Assembly (NCBI GenBank): GCA_031400775.1
Contig: JANNQN010000293.1
Location: 1-54,788, forward strand
DNA: 54,788 bases
Direction of reading: 5' to 3'
Origin: Planctomycetia bacterium
GTDB lineage: Bacteria; Planctomycetota; Planctomycetia; Pirellulales; PALSA-1355
How positions within the stretch are numbered: the first letter of the stretch is position 1; each line of letters starts with the position of its first letter. Below the pieces are notes generated by a model that did no database searches, was not told the DNA's origin, and saw nothing but the letters and a program-made list of their open reading frames with translations. Made by a program: the position numbers and the translations under genes. Positions 5,717 through 35,755 of the stretch are shown piece after piece.

Positions 5717-6877
5717 TCAGTCGCGCCGCGAACGATCTTTGAGATAGGCCACGGTGCTCAGCAACAGGACGAACGGCACGGCAAACGGCAGCCCCAGTCC
5801 TAATGGCAATGCGCCGGCCGTCAGCACGAGGAGCGATAGGACGAACAAGCCCACCAGCGGCGCGAAATTGCGCTTCGTATAGCGCAGCACGCAGAGCAGA
5901 GCCTCGGTCGGACTGGCCACGCGATCCACCAACACCAGCAAGGCGGGCACCCAGATCATCAGGCCAATGACCGGCCAAGACAACAGGATCGCGCCGCCGA
6001 CAAACTCGGGCGGCAGCCCGGCGAGCCATGCAAGACTCGCGGCCAACAGCGGCGGGACGAAGCACATGATCCAGATCGCCACGGCCGAGCCGGCCAGCGG
6101 CATGCCACTAAACAGAACGGCCAGGCCGGGCCGATGGCCGCGCGCCGTCTTGATCGTGAACGTCATCGCGCCCAGCATCAGCCAGATCAATACGATTTGC
6201 GGCAGGCAGAATTGAACGAGCGCGGGCGCCATTCGGAAGAGAAAGCCGATCGCGGCGCTGGCGGCGGCCACGATCAGCGGCGCCACAATGCCGGCCGCAA
6301 ACAGTGACTTAAAATTGGTTTTGTAGATTCCCCAAGTGCGCTGCAGGATGTCTTGAATTTGAATCTGCGGTGGATGCGTGACGGCGGCCTTCTTCTCGTT
6401 TTTCTTCTCGTGGCGGCTCGGGTCCAACAAAATCGGCCGCGCGGCGCTTGGCCGCGGATGGACGCCGCTGGCGGCGGGACTTGGCGATGCGGCTGCCGGC
6501 GCGCTGTTTCCGCCGTGGACACCGTTTCCGTTTTTGATACCGCTGCCGTCGTGGACACTGTTGGTGACGTTCGGCGCCGCCTTGGGAATGACAATCGTTT
6601 CGGAGAGATCAACCACCGTGTCACACACCGACGCCGGCGCAGGTTCTGCGCTGGGTTTGGCATGCGATGCGACCGCAGGCCGTGTGATAACGGAGCTGGT
6701 GCTTGCCGCGAGCGACCGAGCGGCCGCCTGTTGACTGCCGGGGGGCCAATAGTGCGCGGTCGGACTGGGAATCGTCAGCACTTCGCCGCATTTCACGCAC
6801 TGGGCGCGAAGTCCGGCCATGTCGTCGGGCAAGCGGAGGGTTGTCTTGCAGCCGCTGCAATCGAATTCGATAGTCAT
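5717..6877 (-). CDS. Zinc-ribbon plus low-complexity linker plus multi-TM membrane protein
   Basis: ATG at 6877: MTIEFDCSGC...CVKC, Ala/Pro/Ser linker, IQDILQRTWGIYK then several TM helices; paralog of the next gene. Confidence 0.75.
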   Translation of the reverse strand: MTIEFDCSGCKTTLRLPDDMAGLRAQCVKCGEVLTIPSPTAHYWPPGSQQAAARSLAASTSSVITRPAVASHAKPSAEPAPASVCDTVVDLSETIVIPKAAPNVTNSVHDGSGIKNGNGVHGGNSAPAAASPSPAASGVHPRPSAARPILLDPSRHEKKNEKKAAVTHPPQIQIQDILQRTWGIYKTNFKSLFAAGIVAPLIVAAASAAIGFLFRMAPALVQFCLPQIVLIWLMLGAMTFTIKTARGHRPGLAVLFSGMPLAGSAVAIWIMCFVPPLLAASLAWLAGLPPEFVGGAILLSWPVIGLMIWVPALLVLVDRVASPTEALLCVLRYTKRNFAPLVGLFVLSLLVLTAGALPLGLGLPFAVPFVLLLSTVAYLKDRSRRD

Positions 6878-8129: not shown

Positions 8130-10139
8130 ATGCTCACTTCGGCCGAAATCCTTGGTCCCACGGGTCGAATCGCCGCCCGGCTGGAGCACTACGAAACCCG
8201 CGTGCAGCAACTGGCCATGGCCGAGGCCGTGGCCGCCGCGATCCGCGAAAAGCGGCACCTGATCGCCGAGGCGGGCACGGGCATCGGCAAGAGCTTTGCC
8301 TACCTCGTGCCAGCAATCCTGGCCGTGGCCCAAACCAGCGAAGAAGGCGCCCCGGCGGAGCCGCCGCGGCGCGTGATCGTCTCCACGCATACGATCAGCT
8401 TGCAGGAGCAATTGATCCAGAAGGATCTGCCGCTGCTCAACAGCGTCATTCCGCTCGAATTTTCGGCCGTGCTCGTCAAAGGACGGCACAACTACCTGAG
8501 CCTCCGCCGCCTCCGCTTGGCATCGGCGCGGGCAGCGAGCTTGTTTCGCCGCGAGGAAGAATTCGACGAGCTGCGCAACCTGACCGATTGGTCGCGCGCC
8601 ACGGCCGACGGTTCGCTCGCCGACTTGGACTACCGTCCGCTGTCGAATGTCTGGGACGAGGCCGAAAGTGATAGCGTCAACTGCCTGGGCCGGAAGTGTC
8701 CGACGTATCAGGAATGCTTTTACTATCGAGCTCGGCGGCGCGTGCAGAACGCGCAGATCCTGGTGGTCAACCACGCGCTGTTCTTCAGCGACCTGGCGCT
8801 GCGCCGCGGCGGCGCGAGCATTCTTCCGGACTACGATATCGTCATTTTCGACGAAGCCCACATGCTCGAGTCGGTGGCCAGCGATCACCTGGGCGTAAAT
8901 CTTTCCTCGGGACAAATCGAATACGTTCTCAACAAGCTGTACAACGAACGAACCGGCCGTGGGCTGCTGGCGCACCACCGCCTGGCCGAGGCGCAGCGAG
9001 AGGTGGAAAAATGCCGCTACCGCGCCGACGAGTTCTTTGATTCGATCGGCCAGTGGTCGCAGCAGCGGGGAAAGACCACAGTGAGGGTCGAGCAGAGCGA
9101 GTTCGTCGACAATCCACTCAGCCCGGCGCTCGCGCGCCTGGCCCGCGTGCTCAAGGGGTGCGCGGCCGACGTGCCGGACGAGGAGCGCCCCGACTTCACT
9201 TCGGCGGCGGAACGGCTGCAGGCGATTTCCTCGTCGATCGAGGATTGGCGCTGCCAGCGCGAAGGGGACGCCGTGTATTGGATCGACTCCACGCGCAGCC
9301 GCCGCGGCCGCGAGCGCTGGCACCTGGCCGCCGCGCCGTTGGACGTGGGGCCGGCCTTGCGCGAGCAACTGTTCGACAAGATTTCGACGGTCGTTCTGAC
9401 TAGCGCCACACTGACGGTGGGACGCACAGGCTCGTTCGATTTCCTCAAGTCGCGCATCGGGCTGACGCAAGCCGACTGTCAACGCTGGGGAAGTCCGTTC
9501 GATTATTCCAAGCAGGCCGAGCTGGTGCTGGTCGACGGCATGCCCGACCCCACGACGGACGCGGCTGGCTACCTGCGCGCGGCCTGTGAGATGATTCGCC
9601 GTTATGTGGCCCGCAGCGATGGTCACGCGTTCGTGCTGTTTACCAGCTACGACATGATGCGCAGCGCCGCCGCCGAGTTGGCCCCCTGGCTAGTCGCGCA
9701 GAACCTGGCCGTCTATTGCCAATCCGACGGCATGCCGCGGACCCAGATGCTCGAGCGGTTTCGTGCTAACCCCCGTGCCGTGCTGTTGGGAACGGATAGT
9801 TTCTGGCAGGGCGTGGACGTGCCGGGCGATGCGCTACAGAATGTGATCATCACGAAGTTGCCGTTCAGCGTGCCCGACAGACCGCTGCTGGCGGCCCGCT
9901 TGGATGCGATTCGCGCGGCCGGCGGCAATCCGTTTGTCGATTATCAATTGCCCGAGGCCGTGCTCAAGCTCAAGCAGGGTTTCGGCCGGTTGATCCGCTC
10001 GCAACGGGATCATGGCATGGTCGTGATCTTGGATCCCCGCATTCGCAGCAAGCCCTACGGCCGGATGTTCTTGGAATCGCTACCCGATTGCCGGCGGGTG
10101 ATCGAGACGCTGGGCGCCGACGAAGTCGTGCGCGAGTAG
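8130..10139 (+). CDS. dinG: DinG/YoaA family ATP-dependent helicase
   Basis: Q motif, EAGTGIGKS, VVNHAL, DEAH, TSATL, FWQGVDVPG, KLPF, QGFGRLIR. Confidence 0.93.
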   Translation: MLTSAEILGPTGRIAARLEHYETRVQQLAMAEAVAAAIREKRHLIAEAGTGIGKSFAYLVPAILAVAQTSEEGAPAEPPRRVIVSTHTISLQEQLIQKDLPLLNSVIPLEFSAVLVKGRHNYLSLRRLRLASARAASLFRREEEFDELRNLTDWSRATADGSLADLDYRPLSNVWDEAESDSVNCLGRKCPTYQECFYYRARRRVQNAQILVVNHALFFSDLALRRGGASILPDYDIVIFDEAHMLESVASDHLGVNLSSGQIEYVLNKLYNERTGRGLLAHHRLAEAQREVEKCRYRADEFFDSIGQWSQQRGKTTVRVEQSEFVDNPLSPALARLARVLKGCAADVPDEERPDFTSAAERLQAISSSIEDWRCQREGDAVYWIDSTRSRRGRERWHLAAAPLDVGPALREQLFDKISTVVLTSATLTVGRTGSFDFLKSRIGLTQADCQRWGSPFDYSKQAELVLVDGMPDPTTDAAGYLRAACEMIRRYVARSDGHAFVLFTSYDMMRSAAAELAPWLVAQNLAVYCQSDGMPRTQMLERFRANPRAVLLGTDSFWQGVDVPGDALQNVIITKLPFSVPDRPLLAARLDAIRAAGGNPFVDYQLPEAVLKLKQGFGRLIRSQRDHGMVVILDPRIRSKPYGRMFLESLPDCRRVIETLGADEVVRE

Positions 10140-10156
10140 CGGTCGCATGTGACGCG

Positions 10157-10684
10157 TCAGATGGTATTCGATTCGACTCGCGGGTCGCTCAGCAGCGGAG
10201 GGCAGCGGTCCCGCGTCGCCAAGCCGGCGTAGTCGCCGAAGCGGGGATATCGCTCCCAGTTGTAAGTCACGTCGACAAGGCGGGATTCTTCACCAACGCG
10301 CTTCGAACCGATTCCGTCCGGATTCGACTTAAATCGCTCAATCCTGAGCTGGCCATCGGTCTTGAAATAAAGGACGGTCGTTCCATGTGGCGGATCGACG
10401 TTGTTTGGAAAGTCCGGCCGATGCGACATCGAGATGAAAAGTTCGTTGTGACGTTTTTCTTGAAATGAATACGTCAGGTAGGTGCGCAGCGCGGAGTCTA
10501 AGAACTCGACACATACCGAACGGAAGGCAGTAATCTCTAGGAAGCAATCCGGCCGCAAACGATCGCCAACCAACACAGTATAGAGTTTCCCCTTTTCGTG
10601 AGCCGTTCGAGCTTGGGCTTCTGTAAGTGAATCGTGGGGCCGATGATTGTGACGCGACCATTGCGTGCAATAGCTAATGTCCAT
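10157..10684 (-). CDS. Putative orphan toxin-immunity protein
   Basis: ATG at 10684 (MDISYCTQW...). The pattern AHEKGKLYTVLV...FLD..LR.YLTYSFQE...NWERYPRFGDY recalls proteins found in toxin-immunity clusters. It sits downstream of the CdiI gene in the same orientation and is more AT-rich than its neighbours. Confidence 0.6.
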   Translation of the reverse strand: MDISYCTQWSRHNHRPHDSLTEAQARTAHEKGKLYTVLVGDRLRPDCFLEITAFRSVCVEFLDSALRTYLTYSFQEKRHNELFISMSHRPDFPNNVDPPHGTTVLYFKTDGQLRIERFKSNPDGIGSKRVGEESRLVDVTYNWERYPRFGDYAGLATRDRCPPLLSDPRVESNTI

Positions 10685-10734
10685 GATGCTGTTTCGGCCG
10701 AAAAAACGGTTGGTCCAGTCGAGTATTCTCAATA

Positions 10735-11196
10735 TTACTCAAAGTGCGGCACGCAAAGCCGAATTGCTGTCTGAATTGCTTCGCCTATCTCAGTGACCGG
10801 TGCGTCCGCGCGCACGCGCTCGGTGACACGGGGCATCGGAACAAATCCGTTCTTCGGGCCGGCATTCTCCCATGGTTCGATGGTCAGCCATTCGCTGTCG
10901 TCGTCGGCTTGAACGCTGACAGAGCAAGCTCGTCGCGCGAACGCAGTCCAAGTCTTTACTCCGGCCAATTCCAACATGGACTTAAATCCGCACTCCAGTT
11001 CGGTCACAGTTGGCCGAGGTATTGCTGATCTCGACCCATTCAATGCTTCTACGACGGCGCTGCCGAGGGCATCGCACGAAGCATCCACTCCGAGGCTTAT
11101 TTCCGGCGGCGTGGCCACTCCAAGTCCGTCGATTGTTTTAGAAGTGGCATGCAAAAACCAACCGTTGGCTCGCCGATATATCGTTGCTCGCTTCAT
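10735..11196 (-). CDS. CdiI-like immunity protein (DUF1436/CdiI_2-like)
   Basis: Overlaps the toxin stop (4-nt ATGA-type coupling); DAS...LGSAVVEALNGSR and IGEAI..A patterns resemble CdiI partners of EC869-type DNases. Confidence 0.7.
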   Translation of the reverse strand: MKRATIYRRANGWFLHATSKTIDGLGVATPPEISLGVDASCDALGSAVVEALNGSRSAIPRPTVTELECGFKSMLELAGVKTWTAFARRACSVSVQADDDSEWLTIEPWENAGPKNGFVPMPRVTERVRADAPVTEIGEAIQTAIRLCVPHFE

Positions 11197-12674
11197 CGCT
11201 TCACCTCGATAACAACCACAGTCACTCCTCTCGATTGGCCATAGGATTTTAGCATAGCCAGAGCGCCGCGGTGCTGACCTGATGCACCGGGCGGAATCGC
11301 CAACTCCAGCGCGCGGCCCATTATCTCTCGTTCGGTGATCTCCGCACCTCCAAACTTTGCGCCTTTAAATGCGGCCACACTGTCAATGTACTCCTTGCAA
11401 ACCTTGTAGAAAGTTCCGGGCTTACGGTAACTAGGGGCTCGCAAATCGATGCTCTTTATGCTGGTTACGATTCCACCTATAAATTTGTCAATCACCGGAA
11501 AGGACCTGGGAAGAGTTTGGCCAAGCCGGTCGTGAATTATTTCACCGCGAACAACCGGTCCCAAGTCCCAAACGCCGCGATCTGCAATAGTTTCGGGCGG
11601 CGCCGGATTTGTGACTGTCGCATCTTGCTGTGCGGCCGCCGGCTTGGCAGGGACGGGCTTTTCACTTTCTGCGCTCGCCGCGCGGTTCTTCCGGCGCAGT
11701 AAAATGAACCCAATCACCGTCGCGGCTAGGCGCGCGCCACGGATTGTCTGTTCGTCCGCGCCAGCGGCGCGCAGGCCGGCCTCGACACCTTGTTCGGCGG
11801 CGCCCGCCGCCGCGGCCACGGCCAGCGCTTTGACGACGGCCCATTTGCCCCCTGTCTTGAAAGTAGTGACTAGAATTCCGCCGCCAACGACTATGCCTGC
11901 ACCGGTAAGCGCGAGATTCGTCCACTCCAAGCCGCCCACGACCCGGTTCATCGTCTTGTCGCGCCCGTGGGATCGCGCGTTCATTTGCATCAGTTGCCGC
12001 ATTGCCCGTTGGTCTTGCTGCTCGTCAGTAATCCTCGGCAGTCCGAAATGGGAGGGCGACAACAGCTTGGCCATACGGGCGTCTGCCTCACCCGACAGAT
12101 CGTCTCGCAGCCACGCGTTGCGCGCACTTTCCAGTGCGTCGTGGTAACGCCAGATCAGTGCCTCGCAAAGCTCGACTTCCGCTTCGGCGTCGACGGTTTC
12201 ATCGAGCTTCGCTGCGTCGAGCCGGCCGCCAAACTCGTCCAGCAATTGCTTGATTTCGTCCAGCGACCCCTGGGCATCGGCCAGCTTCTGGTTGAAAAAC
12301 TCCTCGCGCCGATTGGTCTCAACCGGCTTCGGCGGCGTCCGCCGCGAAATAGGAGGCTGTTCGGTCGCAGCCGGCGCGGGCGGCACGGCACGCGTTTCTG
12401 CGACAGGCAACAACTCGCAATAGCGGGCCCAGGCCTCAATCCAATCTTCGAACTCGCGAACGCTTTGGGGCGAAATCCGATAGCCGGCCGCCTCCTGCTC
12501 GGCGATAATCGCGTGCCACTGCTCGCGCCAATCGGCCGGCAGGCGGGCTGAAAATAGCACCGCGAAGAAGTCGTTGACCGCGTCGACCAGCGGTTGCAGT
12601 GCCGCCTCGAGCCGACGAAAAATGTCCTCGACCAAGAGTCGGCGGTTGTATTCAATCTGTTTGGCGAAATCCAT
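11193..12674 (-). CDS. Polymorphic toxin 1: novel N-terminal domain, helical/hydrophobic middle, CdiA-CT EC869-like PD-(D/E)xK DNase
   Basis: ATG at 12674 (MDFAKQI...). The C-terminus LPRSFPVIDKF..GIVTSIKSIDL...YIDSVAAF...I..RALELAIP...YGQSRGVTV parallels CdiA-CT of E. coli EC869 orphan 11 and Yersinia YPIII. Followed directly by a CdiI-like gene. Confidence 0.85.
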   Translation of the reverse strand: MDFAKQIEYNRRLLVEDIFRRLEAALQPLVDAVNDFFAVLFSARLPADWREQWHAIIAEQEAAGYRISPQSVREFEDWIEAWARYCELLPVAETRAVPPAPAATEQPPISRRTPPKPVETNRREEFFNQKLADAQGSLDEIKQLLDEFGGRLDAAKLDETVDAEAEVELCEALIWRYHDALESARNAWLRDDLSGEADARMAKLLSPSHFGLPRITDEQQDQRAMRQLMQMNARSHGRDKTMNRVVGGLEWTNLALTGAGIVVGGGILVTTFKTGGKWAVVKALAVAAAAGAAEQGVEAGLRAAGADEQTIRGARLAATVIGFILLRRKNRAASAESEKPVPAKPAAAQQDATVTNPAPPETIADRGVWDLGPVVRGEIIHDRLGQTLPRSFPVIDKFIGGIVTSIKSIDLRAPSYRKPGTFYKVCKEYIDSVAAFKGAKFGGAEITEREIMGRALELAIPPGASGQHRGALAMLKSYGQSRGVTVVVIEVKR

Positions 12675-12690
12675 TGCGAGAAACCCTGGG

Positions 12691-12767
12691 GTAGGCTGGA
12701 GACCGGAGGCTGGAGGCTGGGGGTCGGAAACGAAAAGCAAACTCACATCCCTCCGGCCTCCCGCCTC
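12691..12767. repeat. Intergenic GGAGGCT-type heptamer array with partial inverted copy
   Basis: gtaggct ggagacc ggaggct ggaggct gggggtc (12691-12725) and ctccggcctcccgcctc (12751-12767). Confidence 0.7.
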
Positions 12768-12774
12768 GCTTCAC

Positions 12775-13767
12775 CTACCGCCCTCCATAAATGGCTCGCT
12801 CTTCGCAGGCGCGCAGCCAAAAGGCGTCGTCAACTTGTTGCTTGGCGACCTCTGCGGCGGTTTTGGCGTCGCGCCGACCGGCCTCGACCAGAGCCTCGTC
12901 GAGAATGCGACGCGTTTCTTCGTCCGGAACGGACGCCAAGAGAATCGGGCGGGCCAGGGGTGGACCGCCGTCGGAGGTCGGCGATTGCAGTCTCGTCGCC
13001 CGCGGACTCAAGTCGGAGTCCGACGGGCGTTCCGGGACATCCGAGTCGCCTCTGCTATTGCTAAGCAATTCGATCGAGGGCCGCCAAGAGTCGTTGTCGG
13101 TTCTCAGCGGCCCGCGCTCAATCACAATTGGGTCGGTCGGCCGTCCGATGAGATCATCGATCACGCCATGATGCGGGGAGTTGAGATTCGGCACCCGATC
13201 AAATGCGCCGATATCCTTTATTGATCCGAAGTGTGGCTCAACCGGCTCCATCGCCATGAAGCCGCCGACGTCCAACGAGTTCGCGGCGCTGGTCGACTCT
13301 CGGCGATCTGCCGTCGCATCGTCGTTTTGGGAGTCGAGGTCCGCAGGCAGGTCCTGCCAAGTCGCGAACATGTCGCGCGCTACGCTCGCGGCAGGCACGT
13401 CGGCGATTGGGGGCGAGCGTAACGAGGCAGCAATCTCTTCGATCGGGGGAGGCGACAACGCGGCGTCCGACGCGAAAGAGTCGGTACCTGCCGGCATGTT
13501 GTCGATAGTGCCGTCCGAAGAGCGTCGTTCCGCGCTCGCATCTGGGATGGCATCGGGCGTCGCTTGTGCGCCGACATCCAACGAGCCGAACAACTCCGCA
13601 GGATCGAGCGCGTCGCTCGTCGTATCGGCATCGGTAACCTGGTCATCAGTTACGGCCTCAGTCGGTGGCTCCGGCCGTTTTTTGCCTGCTGGCTGTTCGG
13701 CCGGTTGCCGAATTAGCTCGGGCTCAAGTGCCGATTCGTCGGCGGTGCGAGGTCGTTTCGGATCCAT
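12775..13767 (-). CDS. Acidic, probably disordered protein with a helical C-terminal domain; first gene of toxin operon 1
   Basis: ATG at 13767 with AGGAG SD; rich in D/E/P/S/A; ends with RPILLASVPDEETRRILDEAL...FWLRACEERAIYGGR. Confidence 0.75.
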   Translation of the reverse strand: MDPKRPRTADESALEPELIRQPAEQPAGKKRPEPPTEAVTDDQVTDADTTSDALDPAELFGSLDVGAQATPDAIPDASAERRSSDGTIDNMPAGTDSFASDAALSPPPIEEIAASLRSPPIADVPAASVARDMFATWQDLPADLDSQNDDATADRRESTSAANSLDVGGFMAMEPVEPHFGSIKDIGAFDRVPNLNSPHHGVIDDLIGRPTDPIVIERGPLRTDNDSWRPSIELLSNSRGDSDVPERPSDSDLSPRATRLQSPTSDGGPPLARPILLASVPDEETRRILDEALVEAGRRDAKTAAEVAKQQVDDAFWLRACEERAIYGGR

Positions 13768-13819
13768 GGCGGACTTGCTCCTGCGGTTTGATGGCAAACA
13801 ACGTTCGATGACATGCAAC

Positions 13820-13876
13820 AAAAAAAGGCCCGTCGCTCGAAAGCGCGTTCGAATGCGCTCTCAAGCGACGGGCCTT
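13820..13876 (-). terminator. Intrinsic terminator in the leader of toxin operon 1 (attenuator)
   Basis: Minus strand aaggcccgtcgcttgagagcgc-loop-gcgctttcgagcgacgggcc followed by a U7 run, ending 52 nt before the ATG at 13767. Confidence 0.85.
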
Positions 13877-14029
13877 CTGGATACCTGCCTGTTGTCGGCA
13901 AGCCCCATGCAGTACCCGCGGTACCAATGCTATTTCGTGACGATCCGCGATCGATTGATCGCAGATCACTCCACGAACGGAAGCCTACCAGATCACGCGA
14001 CGACTGTCAGCGGCCGGAATTAGGCCACT
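13820..14029 (-). promoter_or_regulatory. Conserved leader copy A (promoter plus structured 5' UTR)
   Basis: CTGACA (14010-14005), N17, TGg-TAGGCT (13987-13982); homologous to 16329..16529. Confidence 0.75.
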
Positions 14030-14129
14030 TTCGAGCGGACGAGCCGCCCGCCGCGGCCGTGCCGTTACCGCATGTTTTTCTTGCCGATGTTGATGTCCGA
14101 AAATGGCCAGACAGAGTCCGCCAAAGCGG

Positions 14130-14141
14130 TAGAATCTGGTT
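14130..14141 (+). promoter_or_regulatory. Possible -10 box of a leaderless ada-alkA transcript
   Basis: TAGAAT at 14130-14135 lies 6 nt before the ATG at 14142; no SD sequence. Confidence 0.45.
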
Positions 14142-15611
14142 ATGGATTCGCATCACCAAAGTTGTTACCGGGCCCTCGTCGCACGCGACGCGCGCTTTGA
14201 CGGTTTGTTCTTCGTGGGCGTGACCACGACGCGAATATATTGCCGCCCCATTTGTCCGGCGCGCACACCCGGCAGTAAGAACTGCCGCTTCTTCCCCGTC
14301 GCGGCGGCGGCCGAGCAGGCGGGTTTCCGTCCATGCCTGCGGTGTCGTCCGGAGCTGGCGCCCGGCAACTCATCCGTCGATGCGGTGGGTCGCGTGGCGC
14401 GGATGGCGGCGCTGCGGATCCAGGCGGGGGCGCTCAACAATGGCGGCGACGTGGAAGAGTTGGCCAGCGAATTCGGCTTGTGCTCGCGGCAGTTGCGACG
14501 AGTCATGCGGCAGGAGTTGGGTGTTTCGCCGGTGCAGCTCGCGCAGACGCACCGGCTGCTGTTGGCCAAGCAACTCTTGACCGAGACCCATTTGCCGATC
14601 GTCCAGGTGGCGCTGGCCAGCGGATTCGAGAGCGTGCGACGTTTCAACTCGCTGTTCAAGTCGCACTACCGGCTGGCGCCGCGTCGTTTTCGCCGCTCGT
14701 CGCGGCCGGCCATGGACGGCGAGCCCCTGCGACTTCATTTGGCCTTTCGTCCTCCCCTGGCCTGGCCTGAGTTGCTGCGTTTCCTGGCGGATCGCGCGGT
14801 GGTCGGCGTCGAGCGCGTCTCGGCTGTGGGATACTCGCGCACCGTGGCCATCGGTTCCGCACGGGGTTGGCTCAGCGTGACGCCCGGCAAGATCTCCAAC
14901 ACGCTTTGCGTCGAGCTCGCACCTTCGCTCAGCGGCGTGCTGGCGCCGCTGCTGGCGCGACTCCGGCACCTGTTCGATCTGGGGGCGCGGCCCGCTGCCA
15001 TCGCCGGGCACCTTTCCGCCGACCCCAGGATCGGAAAGTCCGTCAAACGTTTTCCGGGCCTGCGCGTGCCGGGAGCCTTCGACGGCTTTGATCTGGCCTG
15101 CCGGGCGATCCTCGGCCAGCGGATATCGGTCCGCGCGGCCACGACACTGGCCGGGCGACTGGCGGCCCGGTTCGGCGAGACCATCGAGACGCCCGATCCC
15201 GCCTTGACCCGACTGGCGCCCGATCCCGAGAGGGTCGCAACCGCGGCGGTCGATGACCTGGTGGATCTGGGCATCGCACGCGCGGTCGCGGTTGCGATCG
15301 GGGCGCTGGCCCGGGCGGTGTCCGATGGGCGGCTGCGAATCGAGCCGGGGGCGCAAGTTGAATCCACGATCGATCAGCTTTGCGAATTGCCGGGAGTCGG
15401 CCCCTGGACTGCACACTACATTGCCATGCGCGGCCTGGGCTGGCCCGATGCTTTTCCGGATGGTGATCTGGGGCTGCTTCGAGGGCTGGGCGAATCGTCG
15501 GCCGCCCGTGTGCGGAATGCGGCAGAGGCCTGGCGACCGTGGCGCGCTTATGCGGTGATGCATGTCTGGAACCAATTGGCGAATTCTTCAAGCACGAGGA
15601 ACCGATCATGA
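14142..15611 (+). CDS. alkA: Ada-AlkA fusion (Ada Zn-binding, AraC HTH, AlkA N-terminal, HhH DNA-3-methyladenine glycosylase)
   Basis: RDARFDG.FF.GV.TT.IYCRPICPAR...GFRPCLRCRPE; ASGFESVRRFN; LPGVGPWTA.Y; DAFPDGD; WRPWRAYA. Confidence 0.95.
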   Translation: MDSHHQSCYRALVARDARFDGLFFVGVTTTRIYCRPICPARTPGSKNCRFFPVAAAAEQAGFRPCLRCRPELAPGNSSVDAVGRVARMAALRIQAGALNNGGDVEELASEFGLCSRQLRRVMRQELGVSPVQLAQTHRLLLAKQLLTETHLPIVQVALASGFESVRRFNSLFKSHYRLAPRRFRRSSRPAMDGEPLRLHLAFRPPLAWPELLRFLADRAVVGVERVSAVGYSRTVAIGSARGWLSVTPGKISNTLCVELAPSLSGVLAPLLARLRHLFDLGARPAAIAGHLSADPRIGKSVKRFPGLRVPGAFDGFDLACRAILGQRISVRAATTLAGRLAARFGETIETPDPALTRLAPDPERVATAAVDDLVDLGIARAVAVAIGALARAVSDGRLRIEPGAQVESTIDQLCELPGVGPWTAHYIAMRGLGWPDAFPDGDLGLLRGLGESSAARVRNAAEAWRPWRAYAVMHVWNQLANSSSTRNRS

Positions 15612-16150
15612 ACCTTGCAGAAGTGAACTATACGGTGATTGAGAGTCCGATTGGCCGCCTGCTTGCAGTCGGTGATGACGCCGCGCTGTGCGGACTCTAC
15701 ATGGAGTCGCACAAGCGCGGTCCGGCGCCGAACGACCGCTGGCGGCGCGACGATGACTCGCTGCGATTCGCGGCCGAGCAAATCGAAGCTTACTTCGCGG
15801 GCCAGCTCGAGCAGTTCGACTTGCCCTGTGTGACCGCGGGCACGCCCTTCCAGCGCCGCGTATGGACGGCGCTTGGCGAAATTGGCTTCGGCGAAACGAT
15901 TACGTACGCACGATTGGCCCAGCGCGTGGGTGCGCCACGGGCGGCCCGCGCGGTCGGCGCCGCGGTGGGGCGCAATCCGATCTCGATTATCGTGCCCTGC
16001 CATCGTGCCGTGGGGTCGAACGGAAGCCTGACTGGTTTTGCTGGCGGCCTGCCGCGCAAGCGATGGCTGCTCGAACATGAACAAGCGGTGCTGGGAGAAC
16101 GGTCCGGCTGCACGGCGGGGCCAGGTCTGTGCCAGGCTGCTGGCAAGTGA
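15608..16150 (+). CDS. ogt: Methylated-DNA--protein-cysteine methyltransferase
   Basis: ATG at 15608 overlaps the alkA stop; GTPFQ..VW, ARAVG.A...NP, active site VPCHR. Confidence 0.95.
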   Translation: MNLAEVNYTVIESPIGRLLAVGDDAALCGLYMESHKRGPAPNDRWRRDDDSLRFAAEQIEAYFAGQLEQFDLPCVTAGTPFQRRVWTALGEIGFGETITYARLAQRVGAPRAARAVGAAVGRNPISIIVPCHRAVGSNGSLTGFAGGLPRKRWLLEHEQAVLGERSGCTAGPGLCQAAGK

Positions 16151-16328
16151 TTCGCGTCCTCTGCGTGCGGTGTCGATTTGACGGGCCAAAACGTGGCCGC
16201 CAGTGGGTCAGGTTCGTTTCGCCGCTGGCGGCGAATTCGCCCCGGGATTGGAGCCCGTCCGAGACTTGCTGGGTGGACGCACATGTTGGCCTAGCGCTTC
16301 CGAACACAAGTCGCTGGACTCTATAGCG

Positions 16329-16529
16329 AGTGGCCTAGTTTCAGGCGCAGAAATCGTCGCGCGTCTTTGATAGACTTCCGGCATTGAGTTGTGAACACAA
16401 GTTCATCGACTCATCCGTTAATTGCCTGTCTGCGGGTATTGTGCGGGGCCTGCCACTAGAGCGGGTATCCGAATGGGCCCGTCGCTCTTGAGCGCATTTT
16501 CAATGCGTCCGAGTGCGGCGGGCTTTTTT
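16329..16529 (+). promoter_or_regulatory. Conserved leader copy B (promoter plus structured 5' UTR)
   Basis: CAGAAA (16348-16353), N17, TGa-TAGACT (16371-16376); shares blocks AGTGGCCTA, TCGTCGCG, CTTCCG, GCGGGTAYTG, GGGGCYTGCC, GGTATCC, GCCCGTCGCT and GAGCGCATT with copy A. Confidence 0.75.
16477..16529 (+). terminator. Intrinsic terminator in the leader of toxin locus 2 (attenuator)
   Basis: gcccgtcgc...gcggcgggc stem (one G-U pair) with an inner gcgcatt/aatgcgt helix, then U6; ends 61 nt before the ATG at 16591. Confidence 0.8.
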
Positions 16530-16590
16530 ATTGGCCGTGCATGCAGCCGGCGAGTTGGCCGCGGTCCCGACTCTCACTTTGGATAGGACC

Positions 16591-18151
16591 ATGGACTTCT
16601 CCAAACAGATAGCGGAAGACCAGCGATTCCTGCTGGCGGATTTACACCGTCGCATCGAAGCGGCGCTCCAGCCGTTTGCGAATGACCTCGATGACTTCTT
16701 GGGAGTCCTCTTTCAAGCGCGCCTGCCCGCGGATTGGCGTCAACAGTGGCACAATTTTGTGGCCGAGGCAGCGACCAAGGGCTTTTTCGTTAAGGGGAAG
16801 AGCGTTGTTGAGTTGGAGGAATGGATCGAGGCTTGGGCCCGGTTTTGCGGATTGCTCCCGCTCGGTTCTGAATTCGGACAGCCGGAGAATCCATCGGGAA
16901 TTCGGACTCTTGTGGGATCGTCCGAGGACCGCGAAGCTTCGACATTACCTGGCACCTACCAATCGGCCGATCGCGGCGCGCCGATCCTGCTAGCGAGTGT
17001 CCGACCAGGCAAGCAGGGCACGACTCCGTCCAAACCGGCCCCACCAAAACCTGCCGCTCAAACTCCGCCAAAGCCACCTGCTCCAGCGCCACCCGAACCG
17101 CCCGGGCCAACAGCGAAGCTTAATGATGACGGTGTCGAGGTGGCCGGACCCGGTCCCGACACAACCATGTGGTATCGCGTCAAGGTTCGCAAGGCGCTCG
17201 AGATCTTGGATCCTCGCATTGCCCGCTGGTGGCACGCCAACAGCGTCAGCGGACTGGTTCGTTCGCGCGGCGGCCGCGTTTTGGCAGCATGCGCATTACA
17301 GCCGGATGGATGAGGGTAATCGGCCCGTCATCGTTGTTGACGAGGATTACACGGCCGGCCAAACGGCGCAAGCCATCATTGCGGAAGTCACGGGCGGTTG
17401 GTTCGCAGATTCGATTGGCGCGTTTTACAAGAAGTATCGCTTTTCGCAGACGGGCGACTTCGAGGATTTTCGCAAATGGCAGTTGGGCGCCGTCAAGGAA
17501 GCGGCGCAACTGGCCAGCCAGTTAGCCGAGCTGTACGTCAATGCCATCGCCACGCTCACGCCGGCCGGCGACCTGGTGGTCTTCACCACCGACGCGATGG
17601 AACGCGGCCTGAAGCTCGACCAGCTCGTAAACCTGCTGCCGCTGTTGGCTCATTTGCCGATTGGGGCAATTATCGTCAAGTTCGGCAAGCGGCAAGTAAA
17701 GCTCACGAAGCAACTGGCTCGCGACTTCGAAAAGCTGAGCGTCGAACAGCGCACAATCCTTTTGGAAAAAGCAGCGGCCGCCAAGACCGACGAAGAAGCC
17801 GTCGTTATAATCAAGCGCGGCATTGAGGCCGCCACAGAAACCGAACACCACATTGCTACCAACAAGAACTGGCTATCGACGCTACGCGGTGGACCTTGGA
17901 GTCCGAGGTTTCAGAAGTTCTTTAAGAAAGCCGGGCTCACACTTGAGGACGCTGCGAATAAGGTTCGCATTCCAGCGCATCGCGGGCCCCACCCCGAGGC
18001 GTATCATCAAGAGATATACGATCGACTTGAACTGGCAACGGGCAGCAAGAGTGGAGCAGCATACAGAAACGCGCTTTTGGACGAGCTCCGCAAAATCGGA
18101 CGTGAGGCTAGTACACAGGGAACGAAACTAAACCGCTTGCTTACTGAGTAA
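16591..18151 (+). pseudogene. Polymorphic toxin 2: novel N-terminal domain, Pro-rich linker, AHH (HNH/EndoVII-fold) nuclease; apparent +1 frameshift near 17269
   Basis: ATG at 16591 (MDFSKQI...) homologous to toxin 1. That frame ends at 17313, while the +1 frame continues ...AAAFWQH... to EHHIATNK...GPW...KAGL.L...N...HRGPHPEAYH. Could be a real pseudogene or a sequencing error. Confidence 0.8.
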
Positions 18152-18171
18152 GAATTCGCCAGGACCGCAAT

Positions 18172-18759
18172 ATGTTTCAGACTTCGGCCAAACCCAAGCA
18201 ATTGTTTCGAATCCTTGCTGACCATATCCAATACCCCGACCAATGGTTCTTGGACGACCCATTGACTGCCGACGGCTGTGATATCGATCCTCGTGAATTC
18301 ACCGCTGGAAGTCCCTATTGCGGCCCAACACCGGTTGTGGCATCCATCGGGAATCCGGGCAGGGAACTGGCGTTTAATCTCGGCGCCTTTGACATGCCAG
18401 TCGTGTCGTCGGCAGTGGCGGACATCATCTGGCGGATTGCCCCCCTCGACGTTCAATGTTTCTCGATCGACATTCCCGGTGCGGTCGGCTCCTATCAAAT
18501 CCTCAACGCGGTCTGTTCGCTCGATTGTCTGGATGAAGAGCGATCCGAGTTCACGCGATTCCAAGTCGGTGACCATCGATCCGATCTGATCGGCCAGTAT
18601 CATTCGATCCCAACGATTCGTATCGATCCATCCCGCACACTCGATCACCACGTGTTCAGAATACTCAACTGGCACGTTGCGGTACTCGTCTCCGACACCA
18701 TTAAAGACGCATTGGCTGACATTCCACACCTCGGTATCGTCTTCAAGCAGGCCTCGTGA
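18172..18759 (+). CDS. Imm11/DUF1629-family immunity protein, cognate to the AHH toxin
   Basis: PVVS..VA......AP.DVQ, ILN...LDCLDE, IRIDP, VFR, LVS..IK.AL...G..F motifs; 20 nt after the toxin stop. Confidence 0.8.
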   Translation: MFQTSAKPKQLFRILADHIQYPDQWFLDDPLTADGCDIDPREFTAGSPYCGPTPVVASIGNPGRELAFNLGAFDMPVVSSAVADIIWRIAPLDVQCFSIDIPGAVGSYQILNAVCSLDCLDEERSEFTRFQVGDHRSDLIGQYHSIPTIRIDPSRTLDHHVFRILNWHVAVLVSDTIKDALADIPHLGIVFKQAS

Positions 18760-18802
18760 CGCCAGGTCAGCTTACTGGGCAAGAATTCGTCAGGACCGCG
18801 CT

Positions 18803-19388
18803 ATGTTTCAGAGTTCAGGCAATCCAATACAACTGTACCAATTGCTTCTTGACCACATCCAGTACCCCGATCAATGGTTCTTGGACGACCCGCTGACTGC
18901 CGACGGCCGAGAGATTGATCCTCGCGAGGTCGTCGATGGAGTTTCCTATGACGGTCCGGCGCCAGCCGTCGCATCCATCGGGAACGCGGGTAGGGAACTG
19001 GCGTTTAATCTTGGCGCCTTTGACATGCCAGTCGTGTCGTCAGCAGTGGCAGACATCATCTGGCGGATTGCCCCCCTTGACGTTCAATGTTTTGCCATCG
19101 ACATTCCTGGCTCGGTGGGCTCCTACTCAAATCCTGAATGCAGTTTGCTCGCTCGATTGTCTGGATGAAGAGCGATCCGAGTTTACACGCTGGCAAGAAG
19201 GAGATCACCGATCCGACTTGATCGGCCAATATCGTATGATCTCGACGATTCGCATCGACCCACTCCGTACTCACGATCATCACGTCTTCAGAATCCGCAA
19301 TTTTACCATCGCGCTATTGGTCTCGGAAACTGTAAAAGACGCGCTCGTTTACATCCCAAACCTGGGGGTCTTGTTCGATCCCGTGTAG
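18803..19388 (+). pseudogene. Second Imm11/DUF1629 immunity copy with a +1 insertion at about 19126
   Basis: Copy 1 reads tcc tat caa atc, copy 2 reads tcc tac t caa atc; protein similarity continues in the +1 frame to the TAG at 19388. Confidence 0.85.
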
Positions 19389-19458
19389 TAACGCCAGGTA
19401 TGCGTTCCCAGGGGCTTTTCGCCGCTTGAGCGGCTCGAAACCTTGGTAACCGATTCGC

Positions 19459-20286
19459 TCAGGTGCTCGCCGCTTCCGGCACGAGGACCTCGCCGCGGCT
19501 GGTGGCGATCATGTCGCCGTGATAGGTGCGATAGGCGGAGTGTACGAGCGACTCGTCGAAGGCGAAGTCCAGCCGGCGCAGCTCGCGAAAGATCAATTGC
19601 AGAAACAGCGGTTTGTCACAACTGCCAGCGCGAAATGTCGGTAGCAATTTGGGCACAGAGCTGGCAAGCAGACCCAGCGTGCCGCGTCGCATACCCGCTC
19701 CGCTGCGGATGCCCGCGGGACCAAAGACCAGGATCGTGCCGGCGATCATGTTGATGCCGGCGAAGTCGCCGCAGGCGCCGCCCACGGCCAAGAGTCCGCG
19801 GCGCATCGTGTGGCCGACCTCGTTGCCCACGTCGCCGCCAACCAGGATCGTACCGCCGGTCATGCCGCGAGGGCTGCCGCGATAGGCCGCGCCGATCAGG
19901 TGGCCCGCGTTGCCGCGGACGTGGATCAGTCCGCCGTGCATTTCGCCCCCGACCCAATCGCCAGCGTCGCCCGACACGTGCAGTTGGCCGCCGGTCATTT
20001 CGCTGCCCACGTGGCGGCCGGCCGTGCCCTCGACGCGAATCTCGCCATCGGCCATATGCGCGCCGATCCAGTGCACGCCCGACAGATCCCCCTCGAACAC
20101 CATGCCTCCATCGGCGGCGCTGCCGGAGACGGTAAAGAAATCGGCCAGCGGCCGCTTCTCATTGCCGTGAAAGATCTCGAATCGCTCGATCGCGTCCAGC
20201 GGCACGTCGCGGACCGTGTTTGGCACGAGCCCTTCGACTTCCACCGGCACGCTGGTCTGGGCTTTATAGAGGAGTCGGAGCGGCAT
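19459..20286 (-). CDS. fwdC: Formylmethanofuran dehydrogenase / Fhc subunit C
   Basis: Repeated G..M.GG.I.V.G beta-helix motifs, GAAYRGS..GMTGG, Y.GD..  G.GE. Confidence 0.93.
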   Translation of the reverse strand: MPLRLLYKAQTSVPVEVEGLVPNTVRDVPLDAIERFEIFHGNEKRPLADFFTVSGSAADGGMVFEGDLSGVHWIGAHMADGEIRVEGTAGRHVGSEMTGGQLHVSGDAGDWVGGEMHGGLIHVRGNAGHLIGAAYRGSPRGMTGGTILVGGDVGNEVGHTMRRGLLAVGGACGDFAGINMIAGTILVFGPAGIRSGAGMRRGTLGLLASSVPKLLPTFRAGSCDKPLFLQLIFRELRRLDFAFDESLVHSAYRTYHGDMIATSRGEVLVPEAAST

Positions 20287-26068: not shown

Positions 26069-27178
26069 ATGGGTGCGGACACTAAATCCTTGCCATTGAA
26101 CAGCCACGTCTGGTGTCTCGCTGGCGAAATTGACGCGTTGGGATCGACGCGTCGAGTCGCCATCAATGCGACTCCTTTTCGAGTCGGCCGGGGACCCGAC
26201 GTGCCATTATCCTTGCCTTGCCTGAGCGTCTCGAAGTTGCACGCTGAGCTGACCAGGCACGCTTCGGACCTCTGCGTTCGCGACTTGCAGAGCACGAACG
26301 GCACCTATATCAACGGTCAACGAATCCGCCTTGAACAGGCGCTCAAAGAAGGCGATCTGTTGCAATTCGGCAACGTTGTTTTCCAGGTCGGTTGCGAAGC
26401 GCCGCCGGCCGCAACCGGAACTATCGGATTCGGCACAGCGAATCGGGCCGAGCAGATTCGCCAGTTCGACCGATTGATGAGAGATCGCGATGTGCTCGCT
26501 TTCTTTCAACCCATCGTGTGCATGAGCAGCCACAAGACTGTCGGGTACGAGGTACTGGGGCGAAGTTCGCTATTGGGCCTCGACACTCCGCAGGCCATGT
26601 TCCAGGCCGCGTCGGTGCTGAAGGTCGAAGCAGAACTGAGCCAAATCCTTCGCCTTGAAGGCATCCAGTCCAGCATCGGATTACAGGGCAAGCCCAACTT
26701 GTTCCTTAACACCCACCCGGTCGAATTGGACAAGCCCGGCCTCTTGGAATCGCTGGCCGCGATTCGCGCGTCGAACCCCGACTTGTCCATCACGTTGGAG
26801 ATCCACGAAGCGATGGTGACTCATCCCGTCGCCATGGCTGAACTTCGGGCCGCGTTGTGCGACCTTCAGATTCATCTGGCCTACGACGACTTCGGGGCCG
26901 GCCAGTCGCGATTGCTGGAGCTATTCGCAGTTCCGCCCGACTACTTGAAGTTTGATATGAGCATAGTGCAAGGCATTCATCGGGCTTCGGATCAAAGACA
27001 GAGCATGCTGTCGTCTCTCATCGCCATGGTTCGGGACGCCGGCATCATACCCTTGGCCGAAGGCATCGAGTGTGAGGCCGACAGTACGACCTGCTCGCAA
27101 CTCGGGTTTGAATTGGCGCAAGGCTTCTACTTTGGCCGACCGGCGCTCGCCAAGGACTGCTCGGCGAAAGGCCCGTGA
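26069..27178 (+). CDS. FHA-EAL domain protein (c-di-GMP phosphodiesterase)
   Basis: FHA: GR...VSK.HA...DL.STNGT.ING; EAL: FQPIV, YEVLGR, DDFGAG, KFD, AEGIE, QGFYFGRP. Confidence 0.92.
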   Translation: MGADTKSLPLNSHVWCLAGEIDALGSTRRVAINATPFRVGRGPDVPLSLPCLSVSKLHAELTRHASDLCVRDLQSTNGTYINGQRIRLEQALKEGDLLQFGNVVFQVGCEAPPAATGTIGFGTANRAEQIRQFDRLMRDRDVLAFFQPIVCMSSHKTVGYEVLGRSSLLGLDTPQAMFQAASVLKVEAELSQILRLEGIQSSIGLQGKPNLFLNTHPVELDKPGLLESLAAIRASNPDLSITLEIHEAMVTHPVAMAELRAALCDLQIHLAYDDFGAGQSRLLELFAVPPDYLKFDMSIVQGIHRASDQRQSMLSSLIAMVRDAGIIPLAEGIECEADSTTCSQLGFELAQGFYFGRPALAKDCSAKGP

Positions 27179-32455: not shown

Positions 32456-32464
32456 GCTTCGATT

Positions 32465-34258: not shown

Positions 34259-34332
34259 GTTCCTTCAACCGTAATTTGCCTCGCTGCCAATTCGAGTTGA
34301 ACTCGCAACTCGAAACGAAGGATAACTCACAA

Positions 34333-35730: not shown

Positions 35731-35755
35731 TCGAGTCGCCCCAGGGAGTCGACGG

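Follow-up and report, generated by a model that had tools for sequence, protein, structure and literature searches.

How are nuclease toxins routed, and how are they kept under control, when the N-terminal domain that they share matches none of the known trafficking domains? The question is raised by two divergent toxin–immunity loci in a stretch of 54,788 nucleotides from a Planctomycetia bacterium (order Pirellulales; GenBank assembly GCA_031400775.1, contig JANNQN010000293.1, positions 1 to 54,788), the whole of which is called the window below. According to the listing of open reading frames (ORFs) and a Pfam search, the two loci occupy positions 10157-19399 and lie on either side of ada/ogt. 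Both are polymorphic nuclease toxin–immunity modules: we observed directly that the toxins are built of modules, that warheads are exchanged while the N-terminus stays constant, that toxin and immunity genes co-vary and that the distribution is restricted. We consider it probable that the two loci represent a lineage-restricted polymorphic toxin–immunity system of one planctomycete family, in which the N-terminal domain (hereafter the N-domain) routes the toxins and a leader RNA with a terminator switches them.

A constant N-terminal domain with exchangeable C-termini

Locus 1 runs leftwards on the minus strand in the order leader, acidic protein, toxin T1, 153-aa gene and 191-aa gene. Locus 2 runs rightwards on the plus strand in the order leader, AHH toxin T2, Imm11 gene and second Imm11 gene, and the acidic gene is absent. 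This agrees with a preliminary description of the same DNA as regards the gene order of locus 1 and the leader, AHH nuclease and two Imm11 matches of locus 2; the label 'CdiI-like' that it gave to the 153-aa gene has no sequence support, and the locus 2 toxin is not one ORF but frameshifted in the assembly. Toxin T1 (493 aa; 11193-12674, minus strand, start ATG at 12674) ends in a domain of the CDI_toxin_EC869_like family (PF21111, E 2.4e-12). This DNase, of the restriction-endonuclease fold (residues 387-492; 11199-11516, minus strand), matches PDB chain 4g6u_A in phmmer (E 3.9e-10) and Foldseek (E 1.9e-4), and in VIA it aligns with 4zqu_A (Z 8.8, root-mean-square deviation 3.7, 99 aligned) and 4g6u_A (Z 8.2, deviation 3.1, 94 aligned). 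Toxin T2 is spread over two frames on the plus strand, the first (16591-17313) holding the N-domain, a Pro-rich linker and the start of the central region, the second (17269-18151) the remaining central region and the AHH (HNH/EndoVII) nuclease (PF14412, E 4.4e-17). T1 and T2 can be aligned over their first 102 aa only (52% identity, E 4e-36), all other BLASTP segments having E > 1, as expected from the earlier statement that the toxins are homologous at the N-terminus alone.

The N-domain is a unit of ~95 aa that is present in five copies in this genome, where it is joined to three kinds of C-terminus: EC869-like, AHH and the type found in the toxin of contig C205, which Pfam left without a match at E ≤ 1 and for which no PDB sequence match was meaningful. 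A profile built from the five copies was searched against 1.84 billion representative proteins. It retrieved 117 proteins at E ≤ 0.001, 65 of them at E ≤ 1e-10, and the match was N-terminal in all 117. Pfam assigned C-terminal toxin domains of several families to these homologues: WHH in six, LHH, EC869-like and Colicin-DNase in three each, and AHH, Tox-REase-9 and Tox-GHH in one each. When the 49 homologues of at least 350 aa were clustered by BLAST, their first 110 aa fell into one cluster and their last 140 aa into 24. Even proteins whose N-domain is 84-95% identical to that of T1 bear PF21111, PF14414, PF14411, PF15650 or no Pfam domain; all are named 'hypothetical protein' at the source, and a more distant one, 60% identical, is labelled 'TolA-binding protein'. 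The expectation set down in the preliminary description, namely many homologues with varying C-terminal toxin domains, is thus borne out by the 117 proteins and by the ratio of one N-terminal to 24 C-terminal clusters.

The N-domain of T1 (12372-12674, minus strand) was predicted on its own with AlphaFold2 from 105 aligned sequences. The model is confident (predicted local distance difference test, pLDDT, 92.3) and consists of three helices, residues 3-40, 49-62 and 69-86. W49 is invariant, and R50 and G64 are nearly so. Foldseek found nothing at E ≤ 0.001. In a structural search against representatives the best match was ribosomal protein bS20 (Z 6.2, deviation 5.5, 77 aligned), followed by single long helices; we judged a Z of 6.2 to be of the generic helical level and dropped the likeness to bS20. 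No Pfam family matched the N-domain in any of the 117 homologues and NCBIfam holds none; PADLOC and PHROGs gave no match among eight proteins of the system, and the ESM Atlas no usable match for the N-domain or for the C-terminus of the acidic protein. In the literature we found nothing on the N-domain, subscription journals and supplementary files (Zhang et al. 2012 included) lying out of reach. Pfam, NCBIfam and the fold searches thus agree with the earlier view that it matches no known trafficking domain, and as far as the libraries and searches used here go the N-domain is undescribed.

Its distribution is narrow. The N-domain occurs in 22 of 32 further genomes of the family, one of which has as many as seven copies, and is absent from the 48 genomes examined from other families of the order and from 400 genomes across the phylum. 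These counts come from a genome-wide search, which was far more sensitive than a scan of contigs for the N-domain pattern, by which three loci only were found. The toxin class proposed earlier for planctomycetes is thus limited to one family and does not extend to the whole phylum. A weak tblastn match to residues 3-54 of the N-domain (38%) was seen at 6001-6141 of a contig of the betaproteobacterium Cupriavidus numazuensis (L016), a possible occurrence outside the planctomycetes; its E-value was reckoned against the candidate stretches alone.

Immunity genes co-vary with the toxin domain

In both AHH loci of this genome an Imm11 gene directly follows the AHH nuclease. In locus 2 this gene (18172-18759, plus strand; 195 aa) matches PF07791 with E 2.1e-7, and a second one, with a broken frame (18803-19388, plus strand), gives an Imm11 match with E 5.4e-7. 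Zhang, de Souza, Anantharaman, Iyer and Aravind (2012; PMC3482391) likewise pair AHH with Imm11 and place many toxin domains in planctomycetes.

The gene after T1 is different. It encodes 153 aa (10735-11196, minus strand), overlaps the toxin stop by 4 nt, and has a homologue directly after each of the three EC869-like toxins examined, that of the window and those of loci L061 and L068. It matched no Pfam family at E ≤ 0.1 and no NCBIfam family, and the best PDB match was at chance level (E 0.74). We dropped the designation CdiI-like, for it has no sequence similarity to CdiI or to any solved chain; by position and co-variation it is a candidate immunity gene of the EC869-like nuclease. Immunity genes thus co-vary with the toxin domain, Imm11 with AHH and the 153-aa family with the EC869-like nuclease, and the best explanation for this order is that the C-terminal DNase would be neutralized in the producer by the product of the gene just downstream.

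At the far end of locus 1 stands an ORF of 191 aa (10157-10732, minus strand) without a match in Pfam or NCBIfam. Its family takes the same place in three toxin loci (locus 1, C205:3238-3783 and L061:11919-12554), and it is possibly an orphan immunity gene. The locus L061 (8863-13202), from another genome of the same genus (G406), is orthologous to locus 1 and adjoins the same DinG-like helicase gene; it has a TAG stop inside the toxin frame. The 153-aa immunity family is present there twice, alongside the 191-aa gene.

A structured leader RNA with an intrinsic terminator

The regions upstream of the two loci are homologous by alignment. Leader 1 (13816-14028, minus strand) and leader 2 (16330-16535, plus strand, ending 55 nt before the toxin ATG) belong to a set of five copies in this genome that could be aligned over ~210 nt. 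A covariance model built from these five copies scores 199 bits on leader 1 and 194 bits on leader 2, both values being high by construction, as the window leaders are part of the model. Independent support comes from other genomes, in which the model finds the element before N-domain genes in 15 distinct loci, with E-values down to 1e-33; the same leader thus accompanies the toxin homologues in at least 15 loci elsewhere, as had been anticipated.

Leader 1 comprises a GTGGCC box, a promoter-like CTGACA-N17-TAGGCT, a GGGUA motif, a hairpin named P2 and an intrinsic terminator, and its fold is more stable than that of shuffled sequences (z -7.2). The terminator (13827-13874) is a hairpin of 20 to 23 bp, with 20 pairs in the terminator scan, followed by U7. 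It ends no other gene, because the gene upstream (ada, plus strand) is divergent. We examined the structure in an independent MAFFT alignment, which took in 20 leaders of about 11 genera. The RNAalifold consensus contains P2 and the terminator, 19 pairs in all, and changes on both sides were seen in 11 of the 19 predicted pairs and in 8 of the 13 terminator pairs. Paired cells amount to 94.4%, compared with 83.2% in shuffles, of which 0 of 500 reach the observed value, and no more than 52.6% after sliding of the partners. The pairs of P2 and the terminator have thus been kept through changes on both sides across about 11 genera, and we conclude that the RNA structure has been under selection. 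Beside these variable helices stand nearly invariant nucleotides that are unpaired or at the base of stems: GGGUA, GGGGCC, GGUAUCC and GGCCCG.

The first ~48 nt of the leader are promoter-like, with the GTGGCC box followed at a fixed place by nnGAcA-N17/18-TAnnnT in 15 of the 20 leaders. The first ORF begins 50-130 nt downstream of the U-tract. As the terminator lies between the promoter-like element and the first ORF, expression most likely requires read-through. Rfam 15, searched over 9500-20000, gave no match to the leader; two rows at E ≤ 1, far below the gathering score, fell elsewhere. A hairpin in the gap that separates the acidic gene from the toxin gene, marked by a chance mir-483 row of Rfam, was set aside, its z of -1.3 and +0.6 in two loci being no better than shuffles. 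Our search of the literature, in which subscription journals and supplements were beyond reach, returned no paper linking polymorphic toxins to a structured leader RNA.

A second toxin class behind the same leader

The leader reaches further than the N-domain. At E ≤ 1e-6 the model finds it in 26 of the 32 family genomes, often in more copies than there are N-domain matches. We fetched 28 leader loci. Eleven have the N-domain (class A) downstream and one has the acidic gene only before the contig ends; at least nine lead, after 3-124 nt, to a second kind of protein; two are too short, and four lead to other genes. The second kind, class B, has a conserved N-terminal region of its own with the motifs AWLFAQA..G.PIP and WDP.KHPR. 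Among its varied C-termini are a DddA-like deaminase (E 2e-17), WHH, a weak match to Tox-REase-2 and the same C-terminus as in the C205 toxin. Compared profile to profile, the N-termini of classes A and B are unrelated (probability 0.1%). The leader is therefore a conserved structured RNA with an intrinsic terminator that is common to two toxin classes, and since it also stands ahead of the second class, the toxin loci behind it appear to form one regulon. The co-ordinated regulation suggested earlier is strengthened by this result, and the link then drawn between the leader and the N-domain is loosened, an unrelated class being preceded by it too.

This genome has one class-B copy, on contig C258 (L056, 387-1433, minus strand), with a weak leader match before it; the copy is cut by a fragment of an IS256-like transposase (L056, 2-283). 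Class-B toxins behind the leader were also noted at L092, L094, L097-L102 and L105. On contig C458 (L055) a weak leader-like match of 40.8 bits (1501-1664) stands just before the ORF of a 195-aa protein (1667-2254), and the later part of a second protein, from 1858 onwards, opens with a signal-peptide-like stretch. The four leader loci with other genes downstream (L088, L093, L096 and L106) suggest further cargo under the leader: in L088 it is followed by a short acidic protein and then by small basic proteins, and in L106 by what we guess, from its first residues only, to be a phage-like protein.

An acidic partner upstream of many toxins

Between leader 1 and T1 lies a gene for an acidic protein of 330 aa (12775-13767, minus strand; start ATG at 13767 with an AGGAG box; isoelectric point 4.4, Asp+Glu 19%). 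At least 11 of the 28 toxin genes examined have such a protein, of 235-370 aa and with an isoelectric point of 4.1-5.1, encoded immediately before them. The N-terminal two thirds are poorly conserved and the last ~70 residues form a conserved module; Pfam, NCBIfam, PADLOC and PHROGs gave no match. A complex prediction for the N-domain with this module returned a median score of 0.29 against a mark of 0.32 and says nothing either way. When all ORFs of 23 neighbourhoods were clustered (three from the genome of the window and 20 others, each no longer than 20 kb), the toxin (23 of 23) and the acidic protein were the only families to recur, apart from immunity families in small sets. Because locus 2, the C205 locus and many others are without it, we regard the acidic protein as an optional accessory.

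Frameshifts in locus 2 and an intact paralogue

Contig C124 of the same genome carries an intact paralogue of locus 2, with leader, acidic gene, a 518-aa AHH toxin in one ORF (14919-16475) and two intact Imm11 genes (16494-17084, E 2.7e-8; 17014-17712). Locus 2 of the window is 84% identical to it in nucleotides. One net extra base near 17268/9 splits T2, its first frame meeting a stop after the extra base; the second frame is collinear with the C124 toxin, and its ATG at 17306 overlaps the stop of the first. The second Imm11 gene of the window also has one extra base relative to C124, near 19126.

Assembled contigs of public runs were aligned on the window and their depth was taken at contig level. 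In run X3, from a study other than that of the best-matching run, three contigs are without one base at 17269 (depth 26.1 of 58.4), and in run X1 no contig is (0 of 7.53). No indel is listed at position 19126 in either run, both of which cover the site. The T2 frameshift may be due to variation between strains, to cross-mapping of a relative or to an error of assembly.

Routing, control and competing explanations

No dedicated secretion system was recognized by Pfam in the window, in a scan of 20 of its 39 non-overlapping ORFs of at least 150 aa, and no secretion genes in the 23 toxin neighbourhoods; the same absence had been reported for the window before. Elsewhere in this genome, which is 96.7% complete, we found genes of a type VI secretion system (T6SS): TssC (E 4e-142) and a PAAR protein on contig C32 (10906-11805 and 25374-25571; L047 and L048). 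Co-occurrence with a T6SS, which the preliminary description had put forward for examination, fails among the relatives. TssC (PF05943) is present in only 3 of the 32 other family genomes, yet in many other families of the order; it is found in 3 of the 22 family genomes with the N-domain and in none of the 10 without. Genomes with the N-domain and no TssC include G427 (100% complete, three copies), G418 and G422 (99%), G408 (97%) and G419 (96%). The genome of the window, the sole one checked for this, has no match to the sheath protein of extracellular contractile injection systems (Phage_sheath_1, PF04984). It has none to WXG100 (PF06013) either, and FtsK_SpoIIIE (PF01580) gives a single match, in a 727-aa ORF, with no EssC-like multi-FtsK ATPase. 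As it lacks Phage_sheath_1 and WXG100 and has one FtsK_SpoIIIE protein only, contractile injection and type VII secretion (T7SS) are without support. Zhang et al. 2012 (PMC3482391) record mobile WXG/YueA-type systems for planctomycetes; none was found here.

In the AlphaFold2 model of whole T1 (mean pLDDT 72.3) the N-domain is followed by a Pro-rich linker that is disordered, a helical domain modelled with confidence (~117-235), a Gly-rich region modelled poorly and, last, the nuclease; outside the nuclease a structure search of the model gave generic helical-repeat matches only (residues 113-257, Z ≤ 8.8). Each of the three full-length toxins of the genome has one strongly hydrophobic central segment, defined by 19-residue windows with a Kyte-Doolittle mean of at least 1.4: residues 251-273 in T1 (Gly-rich; 11856-11924, minus strand), 251-272 in T4 and 340-365 in T3. 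Their N-termini are hydrophilic (mean about -0.27 over the first 19 residues), and the toxins therefore have no signal peptide. Pfam found no RHS, PAAR, LXG, WXG, MuF or filamentous-haemagglutinin part in the 117 homologues. On both points the earlier reading of the sequence stands.

We therefore favour, as probable, the lineage-restricted system introduced at the outset, which would work as follows. Transcription would begin at the promoter-like element in the conserved upstream block, and the transcript would then meet the structured leader, with its GGGUA motif, P2 and a terminator of 13 to 20 bp with its U-tract. Toxin expression would most likely need conditional read-through of this terminator, that is, attenuation by a protein or a ligand, and the leader would appear to govern a regulon of toxin loci with two unrelated N-terminal classes. 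The acidic protein would probably act as an accessory, such as a chaperone or an adaptor. The N-domain would most likely be a routing handle for an export or delivery machinery other than T6SS, contractile injection and T7SS, and the central hydrophobic segment would probably help the nuclease to cross a membrane. A bolder version can be offered only tentatively: that the N-domain and the acidic partner mark substrates of an unrecognized export or delivery pathway, and that a new class of riboswitch-like or protein-bound terminator leaders switches an inter-bacterial toxin regulon with at least two N-terminal classes.

Several observations weigh against the favoured scheme. Only 18 of the 117 homologues have a named toxin domain, and 31 are fragments of less than 200 aa. 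We infer the role of the N-domain as an export handle by analogy with other polymorphic toxins, and the domain could equally serve import into the target cell, as the N-terminal domains of colicins do. Fewer than half of the toxin genes examined have the acidic partner, which is missing in locus 2 and in the C205 locus. As to the leader, the promoter-like pattern was defined after viewing the alignment, and a strict sigma-70 scan did not flag the element. The complementarity of GGGUAU and GUAUCC was considered as a pseudoknot or antiterminator and rejected, as its variants show no clear compensatory change, and no alternative antiterminator structure could be demonstrated from the leader alignment. 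In metatranscriptome run X20, eight short contigs, 90-99% alike, fall on parts of T1, ogt and the 191-aa gene and none on the leaders; they may come from a relative and show neither transcription of the locus nor termination. Finally, locus 2 is frameshifted in the assembly, and at least the copy in the window may be inactive.

The strongest competitor, which we hold to be unlikely, is that the toxins are soluble bacteriocins akin to colicins or S-pyocins: the N-domain and the variable central region would be there for receptor binding and entry into the target cell, not for export, a fraction of the producers would lyse or leak and so set the toxin free, and owing to the leader expression would be an infrequent event. 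Nuclease colicins and pyocins have a conserved N-terminus, a variable middle and a nuclease with its immunity gene, an architecture that speaks for this explanation. So do the recognized warheads, all of which are DNases, with Colicin-DNase in 3 of the 117 homologues, as well as the hydrophilic N-termini without a signal peptide, the 23 neighbourhoods without secretion genes and the lack of support for the three secretion routes. However, no Pfam domain for colicin or pyocin translocation or receptor binding was found in the 117 homologues, no small lysis-type gene recurs in the 23 neighbourhoods, and colicin operons have nothing that corresponds to the acidic upstream partner.

A second alternative concerns the leader, which might be no regulatory RNA at all: a conserved promoter block with a leftover terminator would act as the recombination homology arm of moving toxin cassettes. 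The first ~48 nt do resemble a promoter preceded by a box, the block accompanies both of the unrelated toxin classes, and no antiterminator fold has been demonstrated. We nevertheless find this rather improbable, given that base pairing in P2 and the terminator has survived changes on both sides (11 of 19 pairs, about 11 genera), that the unpaired GGGUA and GGUAUCC motifs are nearly invariant amid varying flanks, and that a terminator 50-130 nt ahead of the first ORF must affect expression.

Less credible still is a system without export, in which the loci would be intracellular toxin–antitoxin, addiction or abortive-infection modules and the leader would couple expression to a signal of stress or infection. 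It would be in keeping with the missing signal peptide and secretion apparatus, with tight terminator control right before the toxin and with nucleases that act on cytoplasmic DNA. Against it, the PADLOC families match no component; the swapping of C-termini on a constant N-terminus and the extra immunity cassettes are hallmarks of inter-bacterial conflict; a non-catalytic N-terminal and central part of ~380 aa with a hydrophobic segment is unexpected in a toxin of a toxin–antitoxin pair; and AHH/Imm11, WHH, LHH, EC869-like and DddA-like domains figure as polymorphic-toxin domains in Zhang et al. 2012 (PMC3482391).

The idea that the toxins are cargo effectors of the T6SS on contig C32, with the N-domain as a loading marker of the MIX/FIX/RIX kind, has the least to commend it and is highly improbable: TssC and a PAAR protein are present there, all three TssC-positive relatives have the N-domain and marker domains at the extreme N-terminus are familiar from polymorphic T6SS effectors, but TssC is missing in 19 of the 22 N-domain-positive relatives, several of them 95-100% complete, and the toxin loci do not adjoin T6SS genes.

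Neighbouring genes

The two loci diverge from a pair of alkylation and DNA repair genes (14142-16150), an ada/alkA fusion (14142-15611, plus strand) and ogt (15539-16150, plus strand); contig C124, too, bears a toxin locus at either end, the two being divergent. Elsewhere in the window lie ordinary planctomycete genes, namely those for PSCyt1/PSCyt2/PSD1, DUF1501, ThiG, a DinG-like helicase and three paralogues of signal peptidase I. The last are in tandem (30713-35814; Peptidase_S26) and, at 493-597 aa, far above the usual length of the enzyme. One protein (26069-27178) joins an FHA domain and an EAL (c-di-GMP phosphodiesterase) domain.

Significance and comparison with known systems

Polymorphic toxins are usually classed by the secretion system that the N-terminus addresses. 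The present family comprises about 100 representative clusters and exchanges its warheads as classical systems do. Here the N-domain matches nothing known and the host genomes are mostly without T6SS, and it may therefore serve as bait for a planctomycete delivery machinery; little is understood of the cell envelope and protein export of this phylum. Our searches brought up no earlier structured, covarying RNA with a specific tie to polymorphic toxin loci, and the leader makes the timing of toxin arming open to reporter and Term-seq tests. The loci also add unassigned toxin and immunity domains, and a DddA-like deaminase relative under the same control.

With the polymorphic toxin systems described by Zhang et al. 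2012 (PMC3482391) the loci share a constant N-terminal part with exchangeable C-termini (AHH, WHH, LHH, GHH and REase folds) and an immunity gene directly downstream, Imm11 with AHH, along with extra immunity cassettes. They differ in an N-domain that matches no Pfam trafficking domain, in lacking RHS, filamentous-haemagglutinin, PAAR, LXG, WXG and MuF parts, in their restriction to one planctomycete family and in their conserved structured leader RNA. The closest parallel for T1 is the CdiA-CT(EC869)/CdiI pair (4g6u, 4zqu), to whose DNase its C-terminal ~105 aa are homologous. Unlike CdiA, T1 has just 493 aa and PF21111 as its sole Pfam match, without a two-partner secretion (TPS) domain, FHA repeats, VENN or signal peptide and without a CdiB-like neighbour, and the adjacent 153-aa gene resembles no solved chain in sequence, CdiI included.

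The LXG toxins of T7SS are similar in their all-helical N-terminus without a signal peptide, polymorphic nuclease C-terminus, downstream immunity gene and, often, a helper-like upstream gene. However, no LXG or WXG100 match in Pfam was obtained at E ≤ 0.001 for the 117 homologues, and the fold search lists no such chain, an absence that by the rule of the tool carries no weight; the N-domain has ~95 aa and not ~200, the partner is an acidic protein of 235-370 aa and not a small helical one, and the host, a planctomycete, is diderm. Nuclease colicins and S-type pyocins are likewise three-part toxins with a C-terminal nuclease, a cognate immunity gene, no signal peptide and tight regulation; in contrast to them, our toxins match no translocation or receptor domain, no lysis gene was seen, and control would lie with a terminator leader rather than an SOS operator.

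As for the leader, it stands before toxin loci and not metabolic genes, and has no match in Rfam 15, and in this it departs from the known terminator attenuators and riboswitch-type leaders. Like them it is a structured 5' leader in which a G+C-rich hairpin with a U-tract precedes the first ORF and conserved unpaired nucleotides stand beside covarying helices.

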